A stretch of 62,451 bases of DNA from an uncultured Candidatus Saccharibacteria bacterium. GTDB taxonomy: Bacteria; Patescibacteriota; Doudnabacteria; UBA920. The position numbers and the translations under genes are program-made. The DNA lies in NCBI GenBank assembly GCA_964532425.1, contig CAZHIA010000009.1:1-62451 (forward strand), written 5' to 3'. The notes below the pieces were generated by a model that was given only the letters and a program-made list of their open reading frames with translations, was not told the DNA's origin and did not search any database. Positions 5,193 to 61,316 of the stretch are shown piece by piece; position 1 is the first letter of the stretch, and every line of letters begins with the position of its first letter.

Positions 5193-6110
5193 TTATTCTC
5201 TCAGTTCGTGCCCGGTCAGTTTCAAAAATACGTCCTCTAAACTCGGGCGTTTGAGTTGTAAATCGGTTAATTCGGCATTGTTCTTGGCCATTGCGTCAAC
5301 CAGGGCAGGCAAAGTTTGCTGTGGCTGTTTACTGGTCACCACATAACCGGTATTATGAGTTTCAACCGCTTCCGCACCCGGCAGCTGCCGCAGTTTATCC
5401 ACTGGCAGCCTGCGCGCGCTTTGAAACAAGATGCGGGAAGATACCCCACTGCCCCTGACCAGTCCTTCCGTGGTGTTCAACGCAATGATCCGGGCATTAT
5501 CCATTATGGCAATTCGGTCACAGAGAATTTCAGCTTCATCCATGTAGTGAGTCGTCAGTACCAGCGTTTTTCCTTCCCGGTGTATGGTGCGGATAAGCTC
5601 CCACAGGTTCCGGCGGGCTTGCGGGTCAAGTCCAGTAGTCGGCTCGTCCAAAAATATCACCTTCGGGTCATTTACCAGCGCAACCGCTATGGACAGTCGC
5701 TGCTTCTGCCCGCCGGAAAGCTCCTTGACCTTGCTGTGGGATTTGTCTTCCAGCTGCACCAGTTCGAGCAAGGACTGTGCGGACACACGCCGGCCATACA
5801 TGGCACCGAAGGTTTCCAGCAGTTCCAGTAGGTCAAGGCCATCAAAGAACGCTGAAGACTGCAACTGCACGCCGATGCGGCTTTTGACCGCGGCGGTCTC
5901 CTTGGCCACATCAAGCTGGTCCAGCAGGACATACCCTTCCGTAATGGATTTGAGACCCTCCATCATCTCTAAAGTAGTTGTTTTCCCGGCCCCATTCGGT
6001 CCCAAAATGCCAAAAATCTCTCCCTGGCGGACATCGAAAGAGATATGGTCAACCGCTACGAATTCTCCATATTCTTTTGTGAGGTTATAGGCCGTTATTA
6101 TTTCTTGCAT
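5193..6110 (-). CDS. ABC transporter ATP-binding protein (DrrA-like exporter ATPase)
   Basis: Walker A GPNGAGKTT, signature LSGGQKQRL, Walker B VIFLDEPTTGLD. Start taken at MQEII (6110); the ORF could extend to 6128. Confidence 0.9.
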   Translation of the reverse strand: MQEIITAYNLTKEYGEFVAVDHISFDVRQGEIFGILGPNGAGKTTTLEMMEGLKSITEGYVLLDQLDVAKETAAVKSRIGVQLQSSAFFDGLDLLELLETFGAMYGRRVSAQSLLELVQLEDKSHSKVKELSGGQKQRLSIAVALVNDPKVIFLDEPTTGLDPQARRNLWELIRTIHREGKTLVLTTHYMDEAEILCDRIAIMDNARIIALNTTEGLVRGSGVSSRILFQSARRLPVDKLRQLPGAEAVETHNTGYVVTSKQPQQTLPALVDAMAKNNAELTDLQLKRPSLEDVFLKLTGHELRE

Positions 6111-6117
6111 ATAAACA

Positions 6118-6144
6118 AAAATAGTCATTATTAATGACTATTTT
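6118..6144. promoter_or_regulatory. 27-nt perfect AT-rich palindrome (operator or weak terminator)
   Basis: aaatagtcatta t taatgactattt, lying between the exonuclease stop (6168) and the ABC ATPase start (6110). Confidence 0.4.
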
Positions 6145-6167
6145 GTATCCGCATTCTTTCCAATTGT

Positions 6168-6788
6168 TCATTGTTCGTCAGCGATGTATTCGAGCCCGGC
6201 CGGTTGTTTTATTTCCCTGAGCTGCTGTTTTGGAGCAATCTTTTTGATCGTTTGGCGAACGGTTTGCCCGAGCTGGTCGGCTGGAAACTGCCTTGCGGCC
6301 ATTTTTAGAAAATCCCACACCACAACCGCGTCATCCAGCGCCCGATGGCGCCGCTTACAGCGAAAATCAAAACGATCTATGATAGCGCTTAAGTTATGCC
6401 TTTTGTGTTCCGGATACAATACGCGCGACAGCCGTACCGTGCAGAGCGTTTCGCAGGAAAAGGCCAGCCCCGCCCGGCGGAATTCAGCTTTCAAAAATCC
6501 ATAGTCAAAACTGCTGTTATGGGCAACTAAAACCGCATCTTCAAAATAATTTAGGACACCTTCAGCCAGCTCGGTAAAACCAGGAGCAGACCTGACATGG
6601 CGCTCAGCAATCCCCGTAAACTCGGTAATGAACTCGGGTATAGGGAGACCGGGATTAACGAATGTCCGGTATTTCGCTGCAACCCGCCCTTTTTCTATAC
6701 GCAACAAGCCGATCTCAATGATCCGCCCGGTAGCCGGATTACCGCCGGTAGTCTCCACGTCAACAATAGTATAATTACGGGTAAACAT
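6168..6788 (-). CDS. DnaQ-like 3'-5' exonuclease (DNA Pol III epsilon family)
   Basis: Exo motifs IVDVETTG, LVAHNSSFDYGFL and HRALDDAVV. Start at MFTRNYT (6788); the ORF extends to 6812. Confidence 0.85.
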   Translation of the reverse strand: MFTRNYTIVDVETTGGNPATGRIIEIGLLRIEKGRVAAKYRTFVNPGLPIPEFITEFTGIAERHVRSAPGFTELAEGVLNYFEDAVLVAHNSSFDYGFLKAEFRRAGLAFSCETLCTVRLSRVLYPEHKRHNLSAIIDRFDFRCKRRHRALDDAVVVWDFLKMAARQFPADQLGQTVRQTIKKIAPKQQLREIKQPAGLEYIADEQ

Positions 6789-6816
6789 ACGAATAGTATA
6801 ACCAAACAACAATTAT

Positions 6817-6930
6817 TCTACAAAACTACCCTGCGGAAATATCCAAATCTACGGAAAACTACGGATTCTCTAAGTGAGGATCCGTAGTTTTCCGTAGATT
6901 TGTAGTTTTGCGTAGCTCCGTAGTTATCTG
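6817..6930. repeat. word-repeat inverted repeat, family ctacgga/ccgtag, with a perfect 22-bp stem
   Basis: aaatctacggaaaactacggat (6845-6866) is the exact reverse complement of atccgtagttttccgtagattt (6880-6901). 13-nt loop, with imperfect word extensions on both sides. Confidence 0.9.
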
Positions 6931-7463
6931 AAACCGCCGGGAGTAAGAGAATGGATACCGCCGGGCAGCTGCCCAATGACATTGTTCGACCCAAGACAGA
7001 ACGTAATCGTATAAGTGCTACCCCGGGCGTCGGCTTCGTAATAATATTGATTGTTCGTGGTATTGCACGTGGTACCTCCGGCATTGTTATCTGGAGGAGC
7101 GGGTGCGGTTGGCATCTTGGATATGTAGGTAGGAGTGATCGAACCGGTGCCGAGGGTGGTGATTGCCTGCATTTGTAAGGTCCCCATTACCGCACCGCCG
7201 GTCTGCGTATATCCGCTGCCCACTGAACCGGTACCGGTAGGATAGGCAGCGTAGTCGTTATAGAAGAGCTCCAATGCTTTTGCCACCTGGTTCATATCCG
7301 CAACACGGCGCGCATCTCGGGATTTCATGCGCGCTGAATTCAAGGCCACCAGTACAACGGACGCTAAAAGACCAATGATAGCAATAACCACCAGAAGTTC
7401 AATCAGGGTAAAGCCTCCCTGCCGGCATGAACCTTTCGACAATTGCCCGAATTTTGCAGGCAT
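6924..7463 (-). CDS. type IV pilin / pseudopilin (prepilin N-terminal methylation domain)
   Basis: [31 protein letters not shown] class III signal, then RDARRVADMNQV..LELFYND. Confidence 0.9.
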   Translation of the reverse strand: MPAKFGQLSKGSCRQGGFTLIELLVVIAIIGLLASVVLVALNSARMKSRDARRVADMNQVAKALELFYNDYAAYPTGTGSVGSGYTQTGGAVMGTLQMQAITTLGTGSITPTYISKMPTAPAPPDNNAGGTTCNTTNNQYYYEADARGSTYTITFCLGSNNVIGQLPGGIHSLTPGGFR

Positions 7464-7681: not shown

Positions 7682-8227
7682 TTATTGGATACCCTGGGGA
7701 GTCAACGTGTGAGAACCGGACTGCAAGCCGCCGGTCACACCACCGAGACAGAATGTGAGGGTGTATCTACTCCCGTTACTCATGGCTTCGTACCAGTAGT
7801 TGTTGGAACCCCTGGCAGCGGACGAGGCACAGGTGTTGTCAGCCGGCAGCGGAGCGGTCGGGATGATACCGATGTAAGTCGGGGTCAAATTGACCGAACC
7901 GTTCGGGCCGGATGCCGTCAAAGTCGTTCCACCAAACACACCTCCAGAAGCTGCGGAGTACGTGCTATTGGTCGGATACGCACTGGCATCGTTAAAGAAG
8001 AGTTCCAACGCGGACGCAAACTGTCTGACATCGGCCATTCTTTTGGCATCTCTAGACTTGGCTCGAGCCGAGTTTAAGGCCAATAAGACCACGGACGCTA
8101 AAAGACCGATGATAGCGATAACCACGAGCAATTCGATAAGAGTGAAACCCCGGGATCCGGGTGCAGACGCTGTTTTTGCAACCATCTGAACTCTCTGGCT
8201 GAAAGCAATGTTCTTCTCTTTATTCAT
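7682..8227 (-). CDS. type IV pilin / pseudopilin paralog
   Basis: [31 protein letters not shown]. The C-terminal half resembles the neighbour (TLTFCLGG vs TITFCLGS). Confidence 0.9.
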
Positions 8228-8381
8228 TATATATAATTTGTTTTTACTGTTTAAATTTCAAAAGACGAATCTCCCACCTTATTATTACTATAGCACTAGA
8301 TCCGTCCACATTCAAGAGATTTGTCCATAAATATGAAGGAATTAATCAAAAACCCGTACCCTGCAGGGTACGGGTTTTTGA

Positions 8382-8957
8382 TTATTGGATGATTTTGTCG
8401 ATCAATCCGTATTTTTTCGCCTCATCGGCTGTCATGAAGTAATCGCGATCGGAATCAGTTTCAATTTTCTTTACTGGTTGGCCGGTATGCTTCGACAGGA
8501 TCTGGTTGATCTGGTTTTTAATGCGCAGCATTTCCTTGGCCTGTATCTCCACGTCTTTCTGCTGGCCTTCGACGCCTCCCATAACCTGGTGTATGAGTAC
8601 GCGGGCATTCGGCAGTGAAAACCGCTTGCCTTTAGCCCCGCAGGCGAGCAACACCGCAGCCGCGGAGGCTGCTTGCCCGAGACAAATGGTCGCCACGTCG
8701 GCTTTCACGTGTTGCATCGTATCATACAGCGCCAGTGCGGCAGTGACGGACCCGCCCGGAGAATTAATGTAGATCTTAATGTCTTCCTTGCTATTTTCAG
8801 CATCAAGAAAGAGCATCTGTGCAATGATCGTATTGGCTACCGCATCATCAATGGGCTCGCCGAGGAAGATGATGCGCTCGCGGAGCAGCCGGCTGTATAT
8901 GTCATACGCCCGCTCACCCATCGGACTGCGCTCAATCACTATAGGTACTAATGGCAT
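8382..8957 (-). CDS. clpP: ATP-dependent Clp protease proteolytic subunit
   Basis: [43 protein letters not shown]. Start at 8957, since the upstream codons are repeat arm. Confidence 0.95.
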
Positions 8958-8963
8958 AAGCTT

Positions 8964-9057
8964 GAAATTCCAAATATCAAATATCAAATATCAAATTAAC
9001 ACAAATGGGCACGAGCGACTGGTTTCATTTGTAATTTGAAATTTGTAATTTGAAATT
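8964..9057. repeat. word-repeat inverted repeat, family aattccaaat (period-7 arms)
   Basis: gaaattc caaatat caaatat caaatat caaatt versus catttgta atttgaa atttgta atttgaa att. The inner pair is acaaatg / catttgt. Arms are imperfectly complementary. Confidence 0.7.
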
Positions 9058-9063
9058 AATGAT

Positions 9064-10218
9064 TTATTCTTCCTGCTTCGCTTCTTCGGCCCCTGCATCG
9101 ATTGACTCCTGCTCAACAGTCCCTTCCGGCGTTACTACCACTTCTTCGCGCTTGGCAGGATCTTCGCTGACCTCACCGGAAATTTTTTCACCATTGATAT
9201 CAATCTTCCAACCAGTAAGGCGGGCAGCGAGACGGACATTCTGGCCGGCTTTGCCAATAGCCAGGGACAACTGATCTTCTAGGACGCCAACCTTGGCTTC
9301 CTTGTTGTCCTCATCCAGCTGAACATTCAGGATCTTGGCCGGGGACAAAGAATTGGCAATGAATTTGACCGGGTCATCGCTCCACTCGATAATGTCGATC
9401 TTCTCTCCCCCTAATTCTGCCATGACGGTCTGAACGCGGCTGCCTTTCTGGCCGACACAGGAACCAATCGGATCCACACCTTCTTCCGTAGAAAAAACGG
9501 CGATCTTGCTGCGAGAACCAGCCTCGCGGGCTACAGCTTTAATCTCAACGCTCCCATTGTAGATCTCCGGAACTTCCAGTTCGAACAGTTTTCTCACCAT
9601 GTCAGGATGGCTGCGGGACAGCGTGATCTTCGGACCCTTAGTGGCAGGCTCGACGTGCAAAACCAGTACCTTCATGCGCTGGCCGAGCGTATACTTTTCG
9701 CCGCGGATCTGCTCGGATGGGAACAGCACGCCGGTAGCTTTGCCCAAATCAATAAGTATCGTGTCGCCTTCAATACGCTGGACGATACCGTTCATGAGCG
9801 TGCGTTCTTTAGCCTTGTATTCGGAGAATTGCACGTTGCGTTCGGCCTCGCGCAGCTTTTGGATAATGACCTGCTTGGCAGTCTGGGCAGCGATGCGCCC
9901 GAAGCTCGTACCGCTTTTCGGAGTAATGTCAGTCTTAATTTCATCGCCAATTTTAGCATTCTTCTTGAATTCTTGAGCCCCTTCGACATCCAGCTCCTTT
10001 TGAGGATCTTCCACGATTTCTACCACGGTCTTAACGTCAAAAACCTTGGTCGCCAAATTCTCAGGATCAAATTCCACGACGACATTCTGATTCTTTTCGC
10101 CGTAATCCTTACGAAAGGCGGCTGCCAAAGAAGCCTCGATCATGGCAATGATTTCATCGCGGCTAATACCTTTTTCTTCTGCAATCTGGTCTAACGCTTG
10201 CTCGAGTTGTTCGTTCAT
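9064..10218 (-). CDS. nusA: transcription termination/antitermination factor NusA
   Basis: NusA N-terminal domain, S1 and two KH regions (GIVQRIEGDTILIDLG, VGQKGSRVQTVM, AIGKAGQNVRLAARLTGW). Confidence 0.95.
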   Translation of the reverse strand: MNEQLEQALDQIAEEKGISRDEIIAMIEASLAAAFRKDYGEKNQNVVVEFDPENLATKVFDVKTVVEIVEDPQKELDVEGAQEFKKNAKIGDEIKTDITPKSGTSFGRIAAQTAKQVIIQKLREAERNVQFSEYKAKERTLMNGIVQRIEGDTILIDLGKATGVLFPSEQIRGEKYTLGQRMKVLVLHVEPATKGPKITLSRSHPDMVRKLFELEVPEIYNGSVEIKAVAREAGSRSKIAVFSTEEGVDPIGSCVGQKGSRVQTVMAELGGEKIDIIEWSDDPVKFIANSLSPAKILNVQLDEDNKEAKVGVLEDQLSLAIGKAGQNVRLAARLTGWKIDINGEKISGEVSEDPAKREEVVVTPEGTVEQESIDAGAEEAKQEE

Positions 10219-11038: not shown

Positions 11039-11140
11039 TCTACAAATCTACGGATGTATCCTAATCTACAAATACCTACAAATACCCATTGGTGTTATTT
11101 GTAGGTATTTGTAGATTTGTGCCATCTGTAGATTAGTAGT
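11039..11140. repeat. word-repeat inverted repeat, family ctacaaat, with a perfect 22-bp stem
   Basis: aatctacaaatacctacaaata (11063-11084) is the exact reverse complement of tatttgtaggtatttgtagatt (11096-11117). 11-nt loop. Starts 4 nt from the yraN ATG. Confidence 0.9.
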
Positions 11141-11543: not shown

Positions 11544-11594
11544 AAATTAATTGAGCAAAATTAAATAAAATTGAACAAAATTGACAAAATTAAC
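11544..11594. repeat. tandem word repeat, family ttgacaaaat (single arm)
   Basis: aaattaattgagcaaaattaaataaaattgaacaaaattgacaaaattaac, starting at the nucleotide after the 11543 start codon. Confidence 0.7.
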
Positions 11595-11701
11595 TGCAAA
11601 AACAGTGTTTTGCCTATTAAATCACACGGGTATTATAAAAGAAAAACCCCCGGGTGTCGAGAGGCTTTTTGCAGCTAACTTTAGCAAATTTACAAATGAA
11701 T

Positions 11702-11780
11702 GCCAATATACAGATACCTACAAATCTCTCCTGGGCAAATCCGTAGTTATCTGTAAATTTGTCATTATCTGTATATTGGC
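11702..11780. repeat. inverted repeat with a perfect 15-bp stem and word-containing loop
   Basis: gccaatatacagata (11702-11716) pairs with tatctgtatattggc (11766-11780). The loop contains the words cctacaaat and ccgtag. Confidence 0.85.
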
Positions 11781-11816
11781 ATCATATTCCATTGAACAAA
11801 CACCAAATAGTCAACA

Positions 11817-12387: not shown

Positions 12388-12477
12388 TAGTTCTCTCGCG
12401 GATACGCGAACCTCGCGGAAACCAGATCACTTTAGCCAGCGGCATCCGCGAAATCCGCGTATCCGCGAGATAACTAT
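12388..12477. repeat. word-repeat inverted repeat, family atccgcg (copy 1)
   Basis: tagttctctcgcggatacgcgaacctcgcgg .. tccgcgaaatccgcgtatccgcgagataactat. Its termini are shared with the 13281-13372 copy. Confidence 0.85.
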
Positions 12478-12484
12478 TCAAAGC

Positions 12485-13279
12485 CTACACTTCCTGATAC
12501 AGCTTCTCAATCCTTACCGCCTTTGGTCCATCCGTTTCTACCAGCACCCCATTAATGCATGCCAACCCCTCTTCTTCCGGCTCCATTTTAAATTTCCCTT
12601 TTTCCAAAAATAGGTCCAATGAATTTTGTATCTGTACCCCGATAACGGAGTTTACCGGACCGGTCATGCCGACATCGGTAATGTACGCCGTGCCGCCGGG
12701 AAGGATCGTTGCGTCAGCCGTCGGTATGTGGGTATGAGTACCGACTATCGCTGTAACTCTGCTATCGAGGTAGCGTCCTAATGCGATCTTTTCGCTGGTT
12801 GCTTCCGCATGAAAGTCTACTAGTATTATATCACCTTTTTGGCTTTGCTCACGGAGGATATCATCCATGCAAAAAAATGGGTTCTTGACGTCGCCGTCGT
12901 ACAACCGGTCAAAAAAAACTTTGCCATTCATATTAATGACCAAATACGACTGCTCATTGATGGTAAACCGGTAATAGCCGTGTCCAGGCTGGTTTTCCGG
13001 GTAATTGGCCGGCCGGATCAGCTTGCCATACTTTTCGAAACATTCGGCTGACAAAGCGCCTTTGTCGAAGACATGGTTACCAGAGGTATAACAGTCAATA
13101 TCCAGATTATCGAATTCGGCTAGCGTATTGGGCGTCACCCCTTTACCGTGAGCCATATTTTCCACATTCACAATGATTGCATCCGGCTGAAACTGTTCTT
13201 TCCACACAGGCAAAACCTCCCGCAGCGCCCTGCGCCCCGGTTTTCCTACAATATCGCCGATGAATAGTATTTTTGCCAT
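12485..13279 (-). CDS. ymdB: YmdB-like metallophosphoesterase (TIGR00282 family)
   Basis: MAKILFIGDIVGKPGR, VNVENMAHGKG, DFHAEATSEK, GTHTHIPTAD. Lies downstream of rny, as in Bacillus. Confidence 0.9.
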   Translation of the reverse strand: MAKILFIGDIVGKPGRRALREVLPVWKEQFQPDAIIVNVENMAHGKGVTPNTLAEFDNLDIDCYTSGNHVFDKGALSAECFEKYGKLIRPANYPENQPGHGYYRFTINEQSYLVINMNGKVFFDRLYDGDVKNPFFCMDDILREQSQKGDIILVDFHAEATSEKIALGRYLDSRVTAIVGTHTHIPTADATILPGGTAYITDVGMTGPVNSVIGVQIQNSLDLFLEKGKFKMEPEEEGLACINGVLVETDGPKAVRIEKLYQEV

Positions 13280-13280
13280 A

Positions 13281-13372
13281 TAGTTCTCTCGCTGATACGC
13301 GGATGACGCGGACCTCGCTGTACGAGATTCTCCGCGCCATCCGTGAAGTCCGCGTATCCGCGAACTAACTAT
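13281..13372. repeat. word-repeat inverted repeat, family atccgcg (copy 2)
   Basis: tagttctctcgctgatacgcggatgacgcgg .. tccgcgccatccgtgaagtccgcgtatccgcgaactaactat. Overlaps the rny stop codon and starts 2 nt from the ymdB ATG. Confidence 0.85.
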
Positions 13373-14907
13373 CTTGCGTATTCAATTACTCTAGTCTCGC
13401 GTATAACATGCACCTTGATCTCGCCAGGGAACTTCAACTCATTCTCTAACCGGTTGGCTATTTCGCGAGCGATCTTCTGACACCCATAGTCATCCAGCTT
13501 CTCCGGCTTGACGAATACGCGAATCTCACGACCACCTTGGATGGCGTATGTCTTTTCCACACCTTCGAAACTATTAGCGATGTTCTCCAGGTCGGTCAGG
13601 CGCTTGATGTAATTCTCAAGCGTGTCTTTTCTGGCACCCGGCCTACTGCCGGAAATATTGTCACAGGCATCGACAATAATGGCTTCCACGCTCTCAGCCT
13701 CTTCCGTTTTGCCTGTCACATCCGTGTCATGGTGGTGGGAAGTAATAGCTTCAATGACGCGCTTGTCGAGGTTGAACTTTTCGGCAATCTTCCGTCCTAG
13801 CTCCACATGAGTGCCTTCCAAGTCCTGGTCCAAAGCTTTGCCAATATCATGCAGTAATGCACCCTGCTTGGCGATCTGCACGTCTGCCCCCAGTTCTTCA
13901 GCCATGAGCGCAGCGAGCTTGCCCATCTCCACGCTGTGGCGGAGAATATTCTGGCCATACGATGTCCTGAACATCAGGCGGCCAATAAGGTGGACAAGTT
14001 TGGGAGGAAATGAGGCAATTCCGAGCTCATATACTGCCTGTTCACCGGCAGCCTTGATCTGTTCATTAATTTCAGCCTTGCTTTTCTCGTAAGCCTCTTC
14101 AATGCGGGCCGGATGAATGCGTCCGTCGGCCAGCAATTTCTCCAAGGTAAGCTTGGCAATGTGGCGGCGAATGGAATTGAATCCCGAAATAACTACGGTA
14201 TCAGGGCTGTCATCAATAAGAATTTCCACGCCCATCATTTGCTCGAATGCTCGAATGTTGCGACCTTCCTTGCCGATGATGCGGCCTTTCATCTCTTCGC
14301 TCGGAATCTGGACCGTGGTGGTCGTGGTTTCTGCAGTCACTTCCGAAGCGACGCGCTCGATGGCCTGGGCTACGATTCGACGGGCTTCGCGCTCCGCCTC
14401 GTCATGGGCGCTGGCCACGAGCTTTCTGTGCAGCTGGACCATTTCATCTTTGACCTGGCGTTCGGCATTATTGAGCAGCACCTGAGCCGCTTCCTCGCGG
14501 GTCATTTGCGCGATCTTTTCCAGATTGGCAATTTGCTTGGCTTTGAGTTCGCGAATCTCTTCCTGGATCTGCTTAATCTCTTGCGCTTTGCGCTCCGTAT
14601 CTTCGCGCTGCCGGTCCAACTGGGTATTCTTCTGTTCAAGCTCTTTTTCTCGGCGGTCAATGCGCTCTTCGAACCTGACGATTTGCTGGCGGAAATCAGA
14701 TTCCTGCTTCTTGGCTTGGTCGATGATTTCCAAGCTGCGAGACTTGGCATCGAGCAAAAGTTCTTTTTCCTTTGCCTTGGCTTCTTCCAAGATTTTCTCG
14801 GCGCGCTCTTCGGCGCTGCCAACCTTCTTCGACATGATGGACTGCCTCAGATAGTAGCCAACAGCCGCTCCGAGGACAGCCCCCAAAATGATATAAACTG
14901 CAATCAT
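13369..14907 (-). CDS. rny: ribonuclease Y
   Basis: N-terminal TM helix, coiled coil, KH (GRIIGKEGRNIRAFE) and HD domain (LLHDIGKA). Start at MIAVYII (14907). Confidence 0.95.
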   Translation of the reverse strand: MIAVYIILGAVLGAAVGYYLRQSIMSKKVGSAEERAEKILEEAKAKEKELLLDAKSRSLEIIDQAKKQESDFRQQIVRFEERIDRREKELEQKNTQLDRQREDTERKAQEIKQIQEEIRELKAKQIANLEKIAQMTREEAAQVLLNNAERQVKDEMVQLHRKLVASAHDEAEREARRIVAQAIERVASEVTAETTTTTVQIPSEEMKGRIIGKEGRNIRAFEQMMGVEILIDDSPDTVVISGFNSIRRHIAKLTLEKLLADGRIHPARIEEAYEKSKAEINEQIKAAGEQAVYELGIASFPPKLVHLIGRLMFRTSYGQNILRHSVEMGKLAALMAEELGADVQIAKQGALLHDIGKALDQDLEGTHVELGRKIAEKFNLDKRVIEAITSHHHDTDVTGKTEEAESVEAIIVDACDNISGSRPGARKDTLENYIKRLTDLENIANSFEGVEKTYAIQGGREIRVFVKPEKLDDYGCQKIAREIANRLENELKFPGEIKVHVIRETRVIEYAR

Positions 14908-16460: not shown

Positions 16461-16538
16461 CCTTTGACCTTTGACATGTGACATTTGACTTTCTGCACTA
16501 GCAGTCGGTCAAAGGTTAAATGTCAAATGTTAAATGTT
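16461..16538. repeat. word-repeat element, family tgacatttgac (copy A)
   Basis: cctttgacctttgacatgtgacatttgacttt, loop ctgcactagcagtcg, then gtcaaaggttaaatgtcaaatgttaaatgtt. The arms are near-identical to copy B at 51977-52056. Confidence 0.9.
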
Positions 16539-17594
16539 CTAAAGTTGATTAACTGCTTTACTTCCTAATTCATTTAAAATTTCCTTCAAATCTGCCGCCA
16601 AGTCCGATTCCGCCTCTATCCATGTACCATCAGGCAGGCGAACTTCGATCTTCTTGGCATGCAGGAACTGGCGAGTCAGGCCGGGCAATTGGCCTTTCTT
16701 TGTACCATATAGTGGATCTCCCACTAAGGGAAATCCGGCGGAAGAAAAATGAACGCGGATCTGGTGCGTTCTACCTGTGTGCAATTTTACCAGAACCAGG
16801 GTGTATTCGTCAAGACTGGTTTTTATGTCATCGCGAGGAGGCAAGGGCTTTATCTTGCCGATGTGGCGATCTTCCGCAGTATAGATTGCTTCGCCCTCAG
16901 ATGCATTCGGTCTCGCAATGACACCAGAAGTCAGATACTCCAACACTCGGTACTCCGTCAAAGACGGCTTAGCCTCAACCATATTTGTTGTGCTGTATTT
17001 GCGAAAATCCGTCTTACTCCGCCCGATCGGCTGGTCAAAGAACCCATGCGGGTGTTCCATCCTGCCGGCGACTAAGGCGATGTATTCTTTCTTAATCCTT
17101 CGCTGCCCAAAAGCATCCTTCAGATACTCATACATATCCTGCGTCGTAGCCACCAGCATGACGCCGCTCGTGTCCTTATCGAGCCGATGGACAATACCGG
17201 GACGACCTTCTTCCCCCACCACTTGAATATCTTTGAAATGATACAGCAGCGCGCTCGCCAGGCTTTCCCCTTTAAATCCTGCTCCCGGATGTACGGCCAG
17301 CCCTGCCGGCTTGTCGATGACAAGCAGTCCGTGATCGTGATATAGAACTTTAAGCGGTGTATTTGTGGCTGTTATTTCGGATTTTGAATTGCGGATTTCG
17401 GGTTGCCGATACTGTATCACATCATCTTTCCTAACCACATACTTACTCTCATTCTGCTCAACTCCGTTGACTGAAACCAGCCCAGCTTCAATATCCCGCT
17501 GGATCTGGCTGCGGGAAATCTCGGGCAAATCGGCCGCAATAGCCTTATCGAGCCGAGTTTTGAGATCTTTGACTTGAAACGAATGTGAGTCCAT
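16539..17594 (-). CDS. RluA-family pseudouridine synthase (RluD-like) carrying a 32-codon in-frame insert
   Basis: S4 domain, HRLDKDTSGVMLV catalytic motif and TGRTHQIRVH. Start at MDSHSF (17594), since the upstream ORF extension has no homology. Confidence 0.9.
   Translation of the reverse strand: MDSHSFQVKDLKTRLDKAIAADLPEISRSQIQRDIEAGLVSVNGVEQNESKYVVRKDDVIQYRQPEIRNSKSEITATNTPLKVLYHDHGLLVIDKPAGLAVHPGAGFKGESLASALLYHFKDIQVVGEEGRPGIVHRLDKDTSGVMLVATTQDMYEYLKDAFGQRRIKKEYIALVAGRMEHPHGFFDQPIGRSKTDFRKYSTTNMVEAKPSLTEYRVLEYLTSGVIARPNASEGEAIYTAEDRHIGKIKPLPPRDDIKTSLDEYTLVLVKLHTGRTHQIRVHFSSAGFPLVGDPLYGTKKGQLPGLTRQFLHAKKIEVRLPDGTWIEAESDLAADLKEILNELGSKAVNQL
16827..16922. repeat. 96-bp palindromic element inserted in frame in rluD
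   Basis: Terminal inverted repeats gtcatcgcgag (16827-16837) and ctcgcaatgac (16912-16922), 10/11 complementary. Inner hairpin ggcaag..cttgcc. Length is exactly 32 codons. Confidence 0.75.
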
Positions 17595-17597
17595 AAT
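17569..17597 (+). promoter_or_regulatory. sigma70-type promoter for the 17616 gene, overlapping the rluD start codon
   Basis: TTGACT (17569-17574), 17 nt, CATAAT (17592-17597). Confidence 0.5.
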
Positions 17598-17615
17598 GAT
17601 GGCATTAAGGGAGGA

Positions 17616-17906
17616 ATGATGAACCGCAAGGAAACGCTTGTCGCTATAAAAAAATTTAAGGATGGCAGCAGCGTCGAAGTCCTCAGACAGACGAGGGTAC
17701 CTGGCCCAAACGCCAGGGCAACTACCAGCACCGTCTATGTATTCAAACGCGCTCCCGGAACAGCAAACCCCAAGCCGCTGGCTGACCTGACGCCGCGCGA
17801 TCTGCGGAGGATCGCCAAGAAAGCCGAGGAGATCAGGCAATTCCTGAGCACAATCCATCCACAGAGTAAATCGCGTTCGTTTTCCGAGAACACCTATCGC
17901 CGCTAA
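17616..17906 (+). CDS. hypothetical small basic protein (orphan)
   Basis: aagggagg SD at 17607-14 followed by ATGATG. 96-aa ORF with its own promoter. No family recognised. Competes with the unsupported N-terminal extension of rluD on the other strand. Confidence 0.5.
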   Translation: MMNRKETLVAIKKFKDGSSVEVLRQTRVPGPNARATTSTVYVFKRAPGTANPKPLADLTPRDLRRIAKKAEEIRQFLSTIHPQSKSRSFSENTYRR

Positions 17907-17945: not shown

Positions 17946-18782
17946 TTAATTTTTGTCAATTAACAGGTCCGGGCGCCGCTTCTTGGTCCGCTTGAGCGCT
18001 TCGCTATGGCGGAATTCTTCCACTTTCTGATGATTGCCGGAGAGCAACACCGTAGGAACCTGTAAGATTTTTATTCTATTACTCGCTGTCCGAGCCGGTC
18101 GCGACCGGCCCCTACCGACCGCATTCTGGACTTTTGATAACTTTTTACTTGATAACTTGATAACTAATTTTTCCGGTTTTGTATACTGTGGATATTCCAA
18201 CATTGCTTCCGAGAATGATTCTTTATCTGTTGATTCGATTTTGCCTAATATCCCTGGACGCAATCTCATAACCGCTTCACTGATCACGAGCGCCGGCAAT
18301 TCCCCGCCCATCAGCACATAATCGCCGATAGACAACTCTTCATCTACAAAAGACCTGATCCGCTCGTCAAAACCTTCATACCTCCCGCATACAAAAACGA
18401 GATTGTCATATTGAGCGAGCCGCTGCGCATCACGCTGATTGAACCGCTTGCCTTGCGGTGTAAGCATAATTATGCGCCTCTGTGCTGTAGGGGCGGCCAT
18501 TGGCCGCCCTTTGCTGGGAGGCCGATGGCCTCCCCTACAGGCGGACCGGATCGCTTTATACATGACATCAGCACGCAGCACCATCCCCACTCCGCCGCCA
18601 TACGGCCGGTCGTCAACGATCTGCCGCTGTCCCAGGCCGAACTCACGTAAATTGATCGGCTGCATCTTGAGCAATTTGCCTTTAATGGCTTTTTGCAAAA
18701 TACCAAAACTTTCCGCGAAGCTCTCAATAAACTGCGGGAATAGCGTAATAATTTTTACGGAAAGGCTCTGTTGCTTCTTCAT
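17946..18782 (-). CDS. trmD: tRNA (guanine37-N1)-methyltransferase with two in-frame insertions
   Basis: VDDRPYGGGVGMVL, VCGRYEGFDERI, SIGDYVLMGGELPA and VLLSGNH, all collinear with E. coli TrmD except for two extra segments. Confidence 0.95.
   Translation of the reverse strand: MKKQQSLSVKIITLFPQFIESFAESFGILQKAIKGKLLKMQPINLREFGLGQRQIVDDRPYGGGVGMVLRADVMYKAIRSACRGGHRPPSKGRPMAAPTAQRRIIMLTPQGKRFNQRDAQRLAQYDNLVFVCGRYEGFDERIRSFVDEELSIGDYVLMGGELPALVISEAVMRLRPGILGKIESTDKESFSEAMLEYPQYTKPEKLVIKLSSKKLSKVQNAVGRGRSRPARTASNRIKILQVPTVLLSGNHQKVEEFRHSEALKRTKKRRPDLLIDKN
18065..18172. repeat. insertion 2 in trmD: GC palindrome plus ttgataac word repeats
   Basis: gccggtcgcgaccggc is a perfect 16-nt palindrome (18094-18109) followed by ccctac. 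Tandem ttgataac words lie at about 18135-18170. Encodes VIKLSSKKLSKVQNAVGRGRSRPARTASNRIKI, which is absent from E. coli TrmD. Confidence 0.7.
18485..18540. repeat. insertion 1 in trmD: 56-nt GC-rich double-hairpin palindrome
   Basis: Outer pair ctgtagggg .. cccctacag. Inner hairpins are ggcggcc att ggccgcc and gggaggcc gat ggcctccc. Translated in frame as CRGGHRPPSKGRPMAAPTAQ. Confidence 0.8.
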
Positions 18783-33085: not shown

Positions 33086-33219
33086 ATTTTGGCTGGAAAA
33101 TTGCTTGAAAACCTAAGGATTCTGTAGTGCAGGGCCGTGGCCTGCCTATCATGGTCGTAGGGGCGGGTCGCGACCCGCCCCTACACATGAGCAAATCTTT
33201 AAGCAATTTTCTCGCCAAA
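33086..33219. repeat. nested inverted repeat in the 5' leader, containing a 28-nt perfect GC palindrome
   Basis: The outer arms ttttggctggaaaattgcttgaaaa (33086-33110) and tctttaagcaattttctcgccaaaa (33195-33219) are 21/25 complementary. Inner elements are gcagg..cctgc (33128-33144) and gtaggggcgggtcgcgacccgcccctac (33156-33183). Confidence 0.8.
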
Positions 33220-33301
33220 AGCTTACAAAAGCTTTGGCGGGCCAGACCTGATGAAGGCTGGATGGATAGCTCTTTTCAGCCCTAAAGGAGGGCAACAATT
33301 T

Positions 33302-53086: not shown

Positions 53087-53341
53087 AAAATTCCAAATCT
53101 CAAATTACAAACCTGGGGACGACATGTGACCTGTAACCATTGACATTTGACCGTAGTGCAAGCCCCGTAGACTTGTTGTACGAGGCAGGCCAGTGGCCTG
53201 CCCCGTGTCAAATGTCACATGTCAATTGTCAAATGTCCCTTGTCTGTTTATTTGTGTTTTGTGATTTGGCCCCATCATTCGATGGGACCACCCCGTCGCA
53301 TGACGGGGTGGATTTTTATTGGAAATTGGGAATTGGATTTT
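53087..53341. repeat. two-level nested word-repeat inverted repeat (aattccaaat outside, tgacatttgac inside)
   Basis: Outer pair aaaattccaaatctcaaattacaaa .. ttggaaattgggaattggatttt. Inner pair 53121-53151 / 53207-53237. The core holds ggcaggcc agt ggcctgcc (53184-53202) and ccaccccgtc gcat gacggggtgg. Confidence 0.8.
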
Positions 53342-61172: not shown

Positions 61173-61316
61173 AAGGTTAGTTAAAAGTTTAAAGTGTAAA
61201 GTTGAAAATATAAATAGCGAATTAAAATATTTACCGAGAGAACGTTTGACATTTAACCATTCACCTTTGTCCGAGAGTTAAAAAGTCAAATGTTAAATGT
61301 TAAAGGTTAAATGTTG
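61173..61316. repeat. word-repeat inverted repeat, family tgacatttgac / aacttta
   Basis: aaggttagttaaaagtttaaagtgtaaagttgaaaat .. tttgacatttaaccattcaccttt .. agtcaaatgttaaatgttaaaggttaaatg. Begins at the nucleotide after the malic enzyme ATG. Confidence 0.6.

Follow-up and report, generated by a model that had tools for sequence, protein, structure and literature searches.

The rluD-like 23S rRNA pseudouridine synthase gene in a 62,451-nucleotide stretch of contig CAZHIA010000009.1 (assembly GCA_964532425.1; hereafter the window), from an uncultured bacterium of the Doudnabacteria, contains a segment of 99 nt that is probably a partly decayed, non-autonomous palindromic repeat, a dimer of repetitive extragenic palindromic (REP) units of the CGTC class, integrated in rluD and translated. 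By sequence comparison the segment belongs to a dispersed family of palindromic repeats, here called R1. Ever since the Rickettsia palindromic elements (RPEs), palindromic repeats in frame with coding sequence have been a textbook curiosity. A preliminary description of this DNA had proposed, by analogy with the RPEs, that a palindromic element tolerated in coding sequence operates here. Tolerance in a coding gene is borne out by membership of a repeat family, absence from about half of the orthologs, a stop-free position in frame and a location in a surface loop predicted to be disordered. Through the CGTC class the analogy goes further than was stated, but the activity implied by "operates" is unsupported by a single, partly decayed copy.

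The gene and the parts of the element are as follows, with positions in the window:

16539-17594, minus strand: rluD-like 23S rRNA pseudouridine synthase gene, 351 amino acids from MDSHSF…
16826-16923, no strand: whole palindromic element of 98 bp, made of TGTC-tagged REP-type units arranged as an inverted dimer, tags facing outward (cmsearch with model R1)
16826-16837, plus strand: left arm of the outer stem P1, TGTCATCGCGAG, with the TGTC tag followed by the AT-initiated stem
16840-16859, plus strand: P2 hairpin GGCAAG-GGCTTTAT-CTTGCC, with GA on both sides as in the family consensus (position of the covarying family P2)
16860-16872, plus strand: left arm of P3, GATGTGGCGATCT, degenerate relative to the consensus GACGAAGCAATCC (cmsearch alignment)
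16884-16896, plus strand: right arm of P3, AGATTGCTTCGCC, including GATTGCTTCGC, which is identical to the family consensus
16894-16912, plus strand: the 19-mer CCCTCAGATGCATTCGGTC, an exact match in sister-family copies (TGTCATTCCGAG…TCGGGATGACA)
16912-16923, plus strand: right arm of P1, CTCGCAATGACA
16827-16925, minus strand: 33 in-frame codons given to RluD, peptide GVIARPNASEGEAIYTAEDRHIGKIKPLPPRDD (GVIARPNAS…PPRDD), from the alignment with 119 orthologs and Escherichia coli RluD

The two P1 arms of 12 nt lie 74 nt apart and are complementary at 11 of 12 positions, the lone mismatch being a G-U pair on the mRNA strand. The terminal repeats of 11 nt noted in the preliminary description (gtcatcgcgag at 16827-16837 and ctcgcaatgac at 16912-16922) are present and extend to 12 nt. 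The inner hairpin described there is also found, with the P2 arms ggcaag at 16840-16845 and cttgcc at 16854-16859, as are the motifs cattgcgag and cgaagcaatc, on the minus strand. The palindrome is thus real, but its length, earlier given as 96 nt, is here measured as 98 bp. The pattern of termini plus spacing occurs once in the window, with 0.00 occurrences expected (none in 100 shuffles). The sense-strand RNA of 96 nt folds to -32.8 kcal/mol (z = -2.8) and the fold of the plus-strand DNA is unremarkable (z = -0.6). Generic short inverted repeats are frequent in the window (59 pairs), and the stronger evidence is therefore the match to a family model together with an exact shared 19-mer. A search for other copies of the termini had been proposed; none was found elsewhere in the 62-kb window, either with the exact termini, with two mismatches, with the looser pattern GTCATYNNGAG or with the R1 model with filters off.

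The family was delineated with the seed pattern GTCATTGCGAG-N8-30-GAAGCAATC-N20-50-CTCGCRATGAC, scanned against viral contigs, where it was found in 92 stretches; several contigs have two or three copies, some of them in tandem. In summary form the family reads (C/T)GTC-ATTGCGAG…GAAGCAAT-CCA…, and the consensus of an 83-sequence alignment is nC GTCATTGCGAG GA GC-gaa-GC GA CGAAGCAATCCAG (loop) CTGGATTGCTTCGCT TCG CTCGCAATGAC Gn. RNAalifold finds three helices in this alignment: an outer helix of 12 bp, a small left hairpin and an inner helix. The outermost P1 pair covaries across the family (C-G 48, U-A 17), and double changes are seen both in the left hairpin P2 (15 and 12) and in the inner helix P3 (23 and 26). 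The covariance model R1, built from the same alignment, matches positions 16825-16924 over model positions 1-84 of 84 with 32.2 bits on the plus strand and 30.1 bits on the minus strand. With filters off the E values in the window are 1.3e-5 (plus) and 4.3e-5 (minus), with no other match below E = 0.19, and in 228.5 kb the match to the element has E = 4.9e-5. The element fits the family architecture P1-GA-P2-GA-P3-loop-P3'-P1' with an extra 13-16 nt between P3' and P1', and the alignment also reproduces features from outside the seed pattern: P2 flanked by GA, a degenerate partner arm and an outer T-A pair.

The GTCATTGCGAG motif was also met in loci of other phyla that had been fetched for unrelated reasons, as a complete 81-nt element in an Anaerolineales locus and as related copies in Omnitrophota and Wirthbacteria loci. 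A Doudnabacteria-type locus (L007, 8183-8246) matches R1 with E = 2e-7 and holds a GTCATTCTGAG…CTCAGGATGAC variant with a compensated outer stem. An R1-related copy lies between genes in a Doudnabacteria metagenome-assembled genome (L088, 15794-15896), and an R1-related, CGTC-tagged palindrome lies inside the trmD-rluD spacer of locus L087 (9895-9985). Neither the window element nor a canonical copy in locus L047 matches a family in Rfam, and the window element is therefore not a described RNA family.

The 19-mer CCCTCAGATGCATTCGGTC is identical in the window element and in the intergenic L088 copy, and the interiors of these two are similar with z = 5.6 against a shuffle null that keeps the termini. 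The same 19-mer is found in 21 metagenome contigs, and about 19 of them carry clear, intergenic copies of a sister family with the layout TGTCATTCCGAG-CGAGTGCATCCGAG-CGAGGAATCCCTTAA…TTAAGGGATCCCTCCACT-CCCTCAGATGCATTCGGTC-GGTCGGGATGACA. These contigs have 40-48% GC, none of the copies lies in a long open frame, and eight of the contigs come from a single metagenome. Judged by its letters, the window copy looks like a chimera or a decayed relative that combines a GCGAG/GCAATC core with one sister-family arm.

The lengths of R1 copies are spread evenly over the three residues modulo 3, as expected of mostly non-coding elements. Long open frames contain 33 of the 103 viral copies, on contigs with 63-72% GC, and Pfam backs one real gene among these, a portal protein; in-frame insertion as a general property of R1 was rejected for this reason. 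In locus L145 the Phage_portal open reading frame (ORF) at 5493-7292 on the minus strand (Pfam, residues 63-391) runs in frame through an R1 copy at residue 495 of 600, with the peptide VIASRLLAKQSATQSEIASSLKNAPRNDI. The C-terminal tail of this portal protein is a possible second in-frame case of R1. Tandem copies of the GTCATTGCGAG family with regular spacing are seen in some phage-like contigs (L148, 3050-3442; L144, 2988-3197; L118, 10744-10988), with three copies 157 nt apart and conserved flanks in L148 and two adjacent copies of 98 nt in L144.

REPs have been divided into superfamilies by their tag, GTAG or CGTC (Di Nocera, De Gregorio & Rocco 2013, BMC Genomics 14:522; PMC3733652). According to that study, CGTC REPs have a terminal CGTC (or TGTC, CCTC), A-T at the first two stem positions, a stem of 8-9 bp, a loop of 4-5 nt and a CCA tail, and they are mostly dimers without a dedicated transposase. 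The families CGTC-1 to CGTC-4 include RPE-6 and RPE-4 of Rickettsia and dRS3 of Neisseria, the peptides of intragenic copies include VIPAKAGI, VIAGLDPAIH…ARVKPAHD and …RRND/…RRDD, and several pseudouridine synthase genes contain REPs (PMC3733652).

R1 and the window element resemble these repeats in the tag, in the AT stem that closes with AT and in the arrangement as inverted dimers with a variable spacer; a CCA tail is seen in the family consensus. The tag is CGTC in 55 and TGTC in 24 of 83 family sequences, and TGTC at both ends of the window copy. The stem reads ATTGC…GCAAT in the family, and ATCGC…GCGAT and ATTGC…GCAAT in the two window units, while the tail is CCA in 50 and CTC in 21 of 89 copies. 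All recovered copies are inverted dimers with outward tags, which is partly a consequence of the search pattern. Both groups are mostly intergenic yet repeatedly found in frame in genes, pseudouridine synthases included, with in-frame peptides that have VIA or VIP at the start and R-x-D/N-D at the end. The window peptide VIA…RDD matches the signature of the published in-frame CGTC dimers (VIA…HD or …RRND). The published families are mainly from Alphaproteobacteria, whereas R1 copies come from a Patescibacteria genome, from loci of Chloroflexota, Omnitrophota and Wirthbacteria and from numerous phage-like contigs. The window copy also differs from published CGTC REPs in its decayed tails and in an arm of chimeric origin. 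An R1 unit of about 35-45 nt has a 5-bp stem, an internal loop and a covarying hairpin of 2-7 bp. Compared by published description, R1 is filed as working like the CGTC class and as probably belonging to it, at most as a new long-stem family. The window element itself is filed outside any published CGTC family and any Rickettsia RPE sequence family, its link to RPE-4 and RPE-6 being one of class architecture.

RPEs are about 100-150 bp long and high-copy in Rickettsia genomes, with 44 coding insertions in R. conorii, and have a conserved peptide (Ogata et al. 2000 Science 290:347; review PMC10969869). They are like the window element in being in-frame palindromes of housekeeping genes, in surface regions, with presence or absence among orthologs, and RPE-1 also interrupts a pseudouridine synthase gene (truB). 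In contrast to their high copy number and conserved peptide, the window has one copy in 62 kb, with a peptide that is not conserved between the window and locus L001 (GCA_023484515.1). In sequence the window element shows no apparent relationship with RPE-1. The GTAG REPs and REP doublets (REPINs), which are mobilised by REP-associated tyrosine transposases (RAYTs), share with the window element the inverted hairpin doublets that fold as one long or two separate hairpins and the lack of a target-site duplication, but carry GTAG instead of (C/T)GTC. GTAG-tagged palindromes occur in the window too, in trmD and at 33157-33184. Bacterial MITEs (miniature transposable elements with inverted repeats) derived from DDE-transposase insertion sequences are similar in being small, with terminal inverted repeats, without coding capacity and with occasional in-frame ORF fusions. 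They differ from R1, which lacks a target-site duplication, is a nested palindrome over the whole element and not only at the termini, and has no parent insertion sequence identified.

The site of insertion was defined, in the alignment of 119 orthologs, as the loop region between …TEY.VLEYL and (V/L)D.YTL..VKLHTGRTHQIRVH. The loop has 0-6 residues in 52 orthologs and 13-53 residues in 66. The excess of the window over insert-free Doudnabacteria orthologs is about 33 codons. In the alignment with E. coli RluD (1V9F), query residues 221 and 264 pair with chain residues 217 and 220, giving 42 residues here versus 2. The 32 extra codons relative to E. coli RluD that were reported earlier therefore correspond to a real insert but are an approximate figure. 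In an AlphaFold2 model with a mean predicted local distance difference test (pLDDT) score of 78.8, residues 213-220 and 265-271 are confident strands and residues 225-262 have pLDDT < 50 without secondary structure. The insert is thus predicted to be a disordered surface loop at the tip of a catalytic-domain beta-hairpin, in line with the surface loop that had been expected. Out of six reading frames, the element has only two that are free of stops, a VIA…R(N/D)D frame on each strand, and rluD uses one of them; the length of the insert is a multiple of three.

The turn is tight in RluD of other phyla among the 76 matches listed, three or four of which have about 13 extra residues, so the large inserts at this turn are specific to this clade. 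The 66 insert-bearing orthologs represent about 29 peptide types, which recur scattered over a poorly resolved tree. The tree of 120 RluDs is star-like, and an ancestral insert is not separable on it from independent inserts in L001 and the window. Insert DNA was fetched for six peptide types, several of which are strongly structured: 141 nt with a fold of z = -8.8 in L086, and 99 nt with z = -4.7 in L087 (10700-10798), where (AATCGGAA)n faces (TTCCGACT)n. The folds are weaker in L001 (z = -2.1) and L089 (z = -1.8), and the inserts of L003 and L088 are tandem-repeat-like and not hairpins. The L001 insert matches R1 weakly (15 bits). The inserts share few 11-mers with the remainder of each locus. 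The presence of unrelated, often hairpin-forming inserts in 66 of 119 orthologs makes this site a lineage-specific hotspot.

In L087 the rpsP product (177 aa) and the KH protein (158 aa), encoded at 7921-9065, are longer than in other genomes, and positions 8458-8609 have 11-mers in common with the (AATCGGAA)n hairpin insert of rluD. This similarity suggests that the same simple-repeat hairpin entered several neighbouring genes in L087.

A sequence of events can be proposed for the window. Two hairpin units of about 40 nt in inverted orientation, each with a (C/T)GTC tag, an AT-initiated stem and a short tail, would make up the repeat. By analogy to the REP/RAYT and IS200/IS605 systems, it may have arrived by a transposition-like insertion via a single-stranded DNA hairpin, without duplication, and would have integrated at the beta-hairpin turn of the RluD catalytic domain, where it is presumably translated as part of the enzyme. 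The repeat would persist because it holds a multiple of three bases in one of two stop-free frames, with the peptide VIA…RDD, and because the fold is undisturbed by the 33 extra residues, which form a flexible loop at the surface. The loop would be a hotspot mainly through tolerance of inserts, and resident palindromes may attract further ones. No excess of direct repeats of 2-5 bp was found at three offsets around 88 R1 copies, and no target-site duplication was found at the window copy, which argues against a DDE-type MITE.

Several observations weigh against a CGTC-class repeat that was inserted in rluD and is translated. A tblastn search of 2.4 Mb with four sequences of RAYTs and related tyrosine transposases (RAYT/TIRYT) from PMC3733652 gave no transposase linked to R1. 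The element is a single copy in 62 kb, which gives no sign of multi-copy status or activity in the genome. The window copy has the tails CTA/CTT instead of CCA, and the stems of R1 units are longer and interrupted, compared with 8-9 bp (loop 4-5 nt) in the four published families. The model score is partly circular because the seed motifs came from the window element, and translation of the insert is inferred, not observed. Lastly, the termini of the element at the same codon in L001 are as conserved as catalytic motifs, which a purely neutral relic does not explain.

The sole RAYT-like gene in the 2.4 Mb fetched is an HUH Y1 transposase gene in locus L202 (2398-2742). It is bracketed by AAAGGACAGTCCTT/AAGGACTGTCCTTT hairpins in a REPtron-like unit (2141-2806), and this palindrome is unrelated to the TGTC family, a copy of which sits 3.6 kb away on the same contig. 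R1 as a RAYT-mobilised REPIN was rejected on the grounds of the TGTC tag and of the different palindrome that flanks the only RAYT-like gene.

The comparison with L001 concerns the conservation of DNA. At the same rluD codon L001 has an element of 65 nt whose termini, GGTGTCATTGCGAG…GCGCGATGACA, are the same and whose interior is unrelated and not conserved between the two (z ~0). Nucleotide identity between the window and L001 is 66% across rluD and trmD, and third codon positions at identical amino acids agree in 46-52%. The left terminus (GGTGTCATTGCGAG) is identical at 14/14 nt and the right at 15/17 nt, and an identity of 14/14 is reached by only 7 of the 965 14-nt windows in rluD. Judged by four genes, no closer relationship of the window to L001 than to other genomes is detectable. 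A further in-frame palindrome lies in trmD:

18485-18540, minus strand: in-frame GTAG-tagged double hairpin CTGTAGGGG…CCCCTACAG of trmD, peptide CRGGHRPPSKGRPMAAPT

This double hairpin is found at the same codon in three lineages (the window, L001 at 1900-1951 and L009 at 5219-5270). With 48/54 nt identical in the window and L001, it is more conserved than any other 54-nt stretch of the gene, and a compensatory stem change in L009 (GAGGCC/GGCCTC versus GAAGCC/GGCTTC) alters the peptide. Possible explanations for the identity between the window and L001 are shared ancestry with a constraint on the nucleic acid, repeated site-specific acquisition, or conversion from other copies.

A second trmD insert (18088-18115, peptide …AVGRGRSRPARTASN…) holds GTCCGAGCCGGTCGCGACCGGCCCCTAC, a degenerate copy of the intergenic palindrome GTAGGGGCGGGTCGCGACCCGCCCCTAC, which is perfect at 33157-33184 and lies inside a 134-nt inverted repeat (33087-33220). 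This second site is also occupied by inserts in L001, L086 and L089. The window has, in addition, long intergenic hairpins with arms of short tandem units (CTACGGAAAA…, TCCGCGAAATCCGCG…, GACATTTGAC…) that form several unrelated families, and one of them lies directly between rplS and rluD:

6831-6915, 11063-11117, 11577-11782, 12388-12476, 13275-13377, 16474-16537, 53121-53237 and 61241-61314: intergenic tandem-unit hairpins

The conserved stems bring up a reading in which the palindrome is kept as nucleic acid, be it a hairpin in mRNA or in DNA, such as a site for processing or stability of the trmD-rluD-rplS transcript or a protein-binding or structural DNA site, with the peptide as a by-product. 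This is rather unlikely; it is compatible with an origin by REP-type insertion and is offered as an addition to the explanation preferred here. It would account for termini identical at 14/14 and 15/17 nt against 66% gene-wide, for the 48/54 identity of the trmD double hairpin with its peptide-altering compensatory change, and for the sense-strand RNA fold (z = -2.8). On the other hand, the comparison is limited to two or three lineages, conservation between the window and L001 does not extend to the inside of the rluD element, half of the orthologs have no insert at all, and the family lacks the bias of G-U over A-C expected of an RNA strand. High DNA identity would also result from a recent, independent insertion or from gene conversion by other copies. 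A broader proposal, unlikely on present evidence, is that specific surface loops of translation-related enzymes in Doudnabacteria are recurrent landing pads for REP palindromes, which are kept by selection at the nucleic-acid level or installed by a site- or structure-specific mechanism. It is based on stems as conserved as catalytic motifs and on compensatory changes that alter the peptide, and would comprise the RluD beta-hairpin, two TrmD loops and possibly the extensions of RpsP and the KH protein. Under selection of this sort the palindromes would be functional cis-elements inside ORFs, more than junk that is tolerated.

The other explanations do without a mobile repeat or without a translated one. 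An ordinary lineage-specific expansion of the loop, palindromic by coincidence, could be imagined from the frequency of short inverted repeats in the window and the plus-strand DNA fold of z = -0.6, but is extremely improbable given a family-model match of E ~1e-5, a detailed architecture common to 89 independent copies, the exact 19-mer in intergenic copies elsewhere and the same termini in L001. A local origin of the hairpin, through template switching or fold-back synthesis as the DNA was replicated and not through insertion of an element that already existed, is very unlikely. Such an origin agrees with the lack of a target-site duplication, and ortholog inserts made of short tandem hairpin units, as in L087, could form locally; the motifs of the window insert, however, are conserved across phyla and phage contigs, cannot be derived from local rluD sequence, and the rluD sequence on either side holds no donor template for the arms. 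Splicing or bypass of the 99 nt, an inactivated gene or an assembly error is hardly credible. Translation has no direct evidence, and strong mRNA structure could in principle promote bypass, but the segment keeps the frame, has no stop and is a multiple of three in length, Rfam shows no intron or ribozyme match, 66 of 119 orthologs have in-frame inserts at the same site, and a related element occupies the same position in an independent assembly (L001/L002).

Pfam finds S4 and PseudoU_synth_2 domains in the product of the host gene (9.5e-32), and the catalytic motifs HRLDKDTSG and HTGRTHQIRVH are intact. The best solved relative is E. coli RluD (1V9F/2IST), and the AlphaFold2 model superposes on RluD 2IST with E = 3e-30 and also on RluD bound to a pre-50S particle (7BL5). 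The nearest of 7999 homologs are 60-67% identical, the named ones being Candidatus Doudnabacteria or Patescibacteria. The mechanically listed ORF is longer (16539-17858, 439 aa), and the orthologs begin at the methionine at 17594. The 5' extension of 88 codons (17595-17858) is common to no ortholog and is probably the trmD-rluD spacer of about 350 bp that chances to be open. The gene order rpsP-KH-trmD-rluD-rplS-(sodA) is kept in relatives.

Events of this kind are known; what is new is the lineage, the family that crosses phyla and the repeated use of a single loop. A literature search on in-frame palindromic elements in the candidate phyla radiation (CPR) gave nothing relevant, and one on the literal sequence gave only unrelated primers. 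In-frame palindromic repeats are extended here to a Patescibacteria (CPR) genome, REPs in genes having been catalogued in 2013 mostly for Proteobacteria, and the insert is tied to a sequence family that crosses phyla and is present in phage-like contigs. For one enzyme, more than half of the orthologs carry unrelated, often hairpin-forming inserts at the same beta-hairpin. For annotation this means that VIA…RDD, GRPMAAPT and SPLTPPPKGEGE peptides in CPR proteins are translated repeats and not domains. If the stems are indeed under selection at the nucleic-acid level, they would be tractable structured DNA or RNA elements within essential ORFs of reduced genomes.

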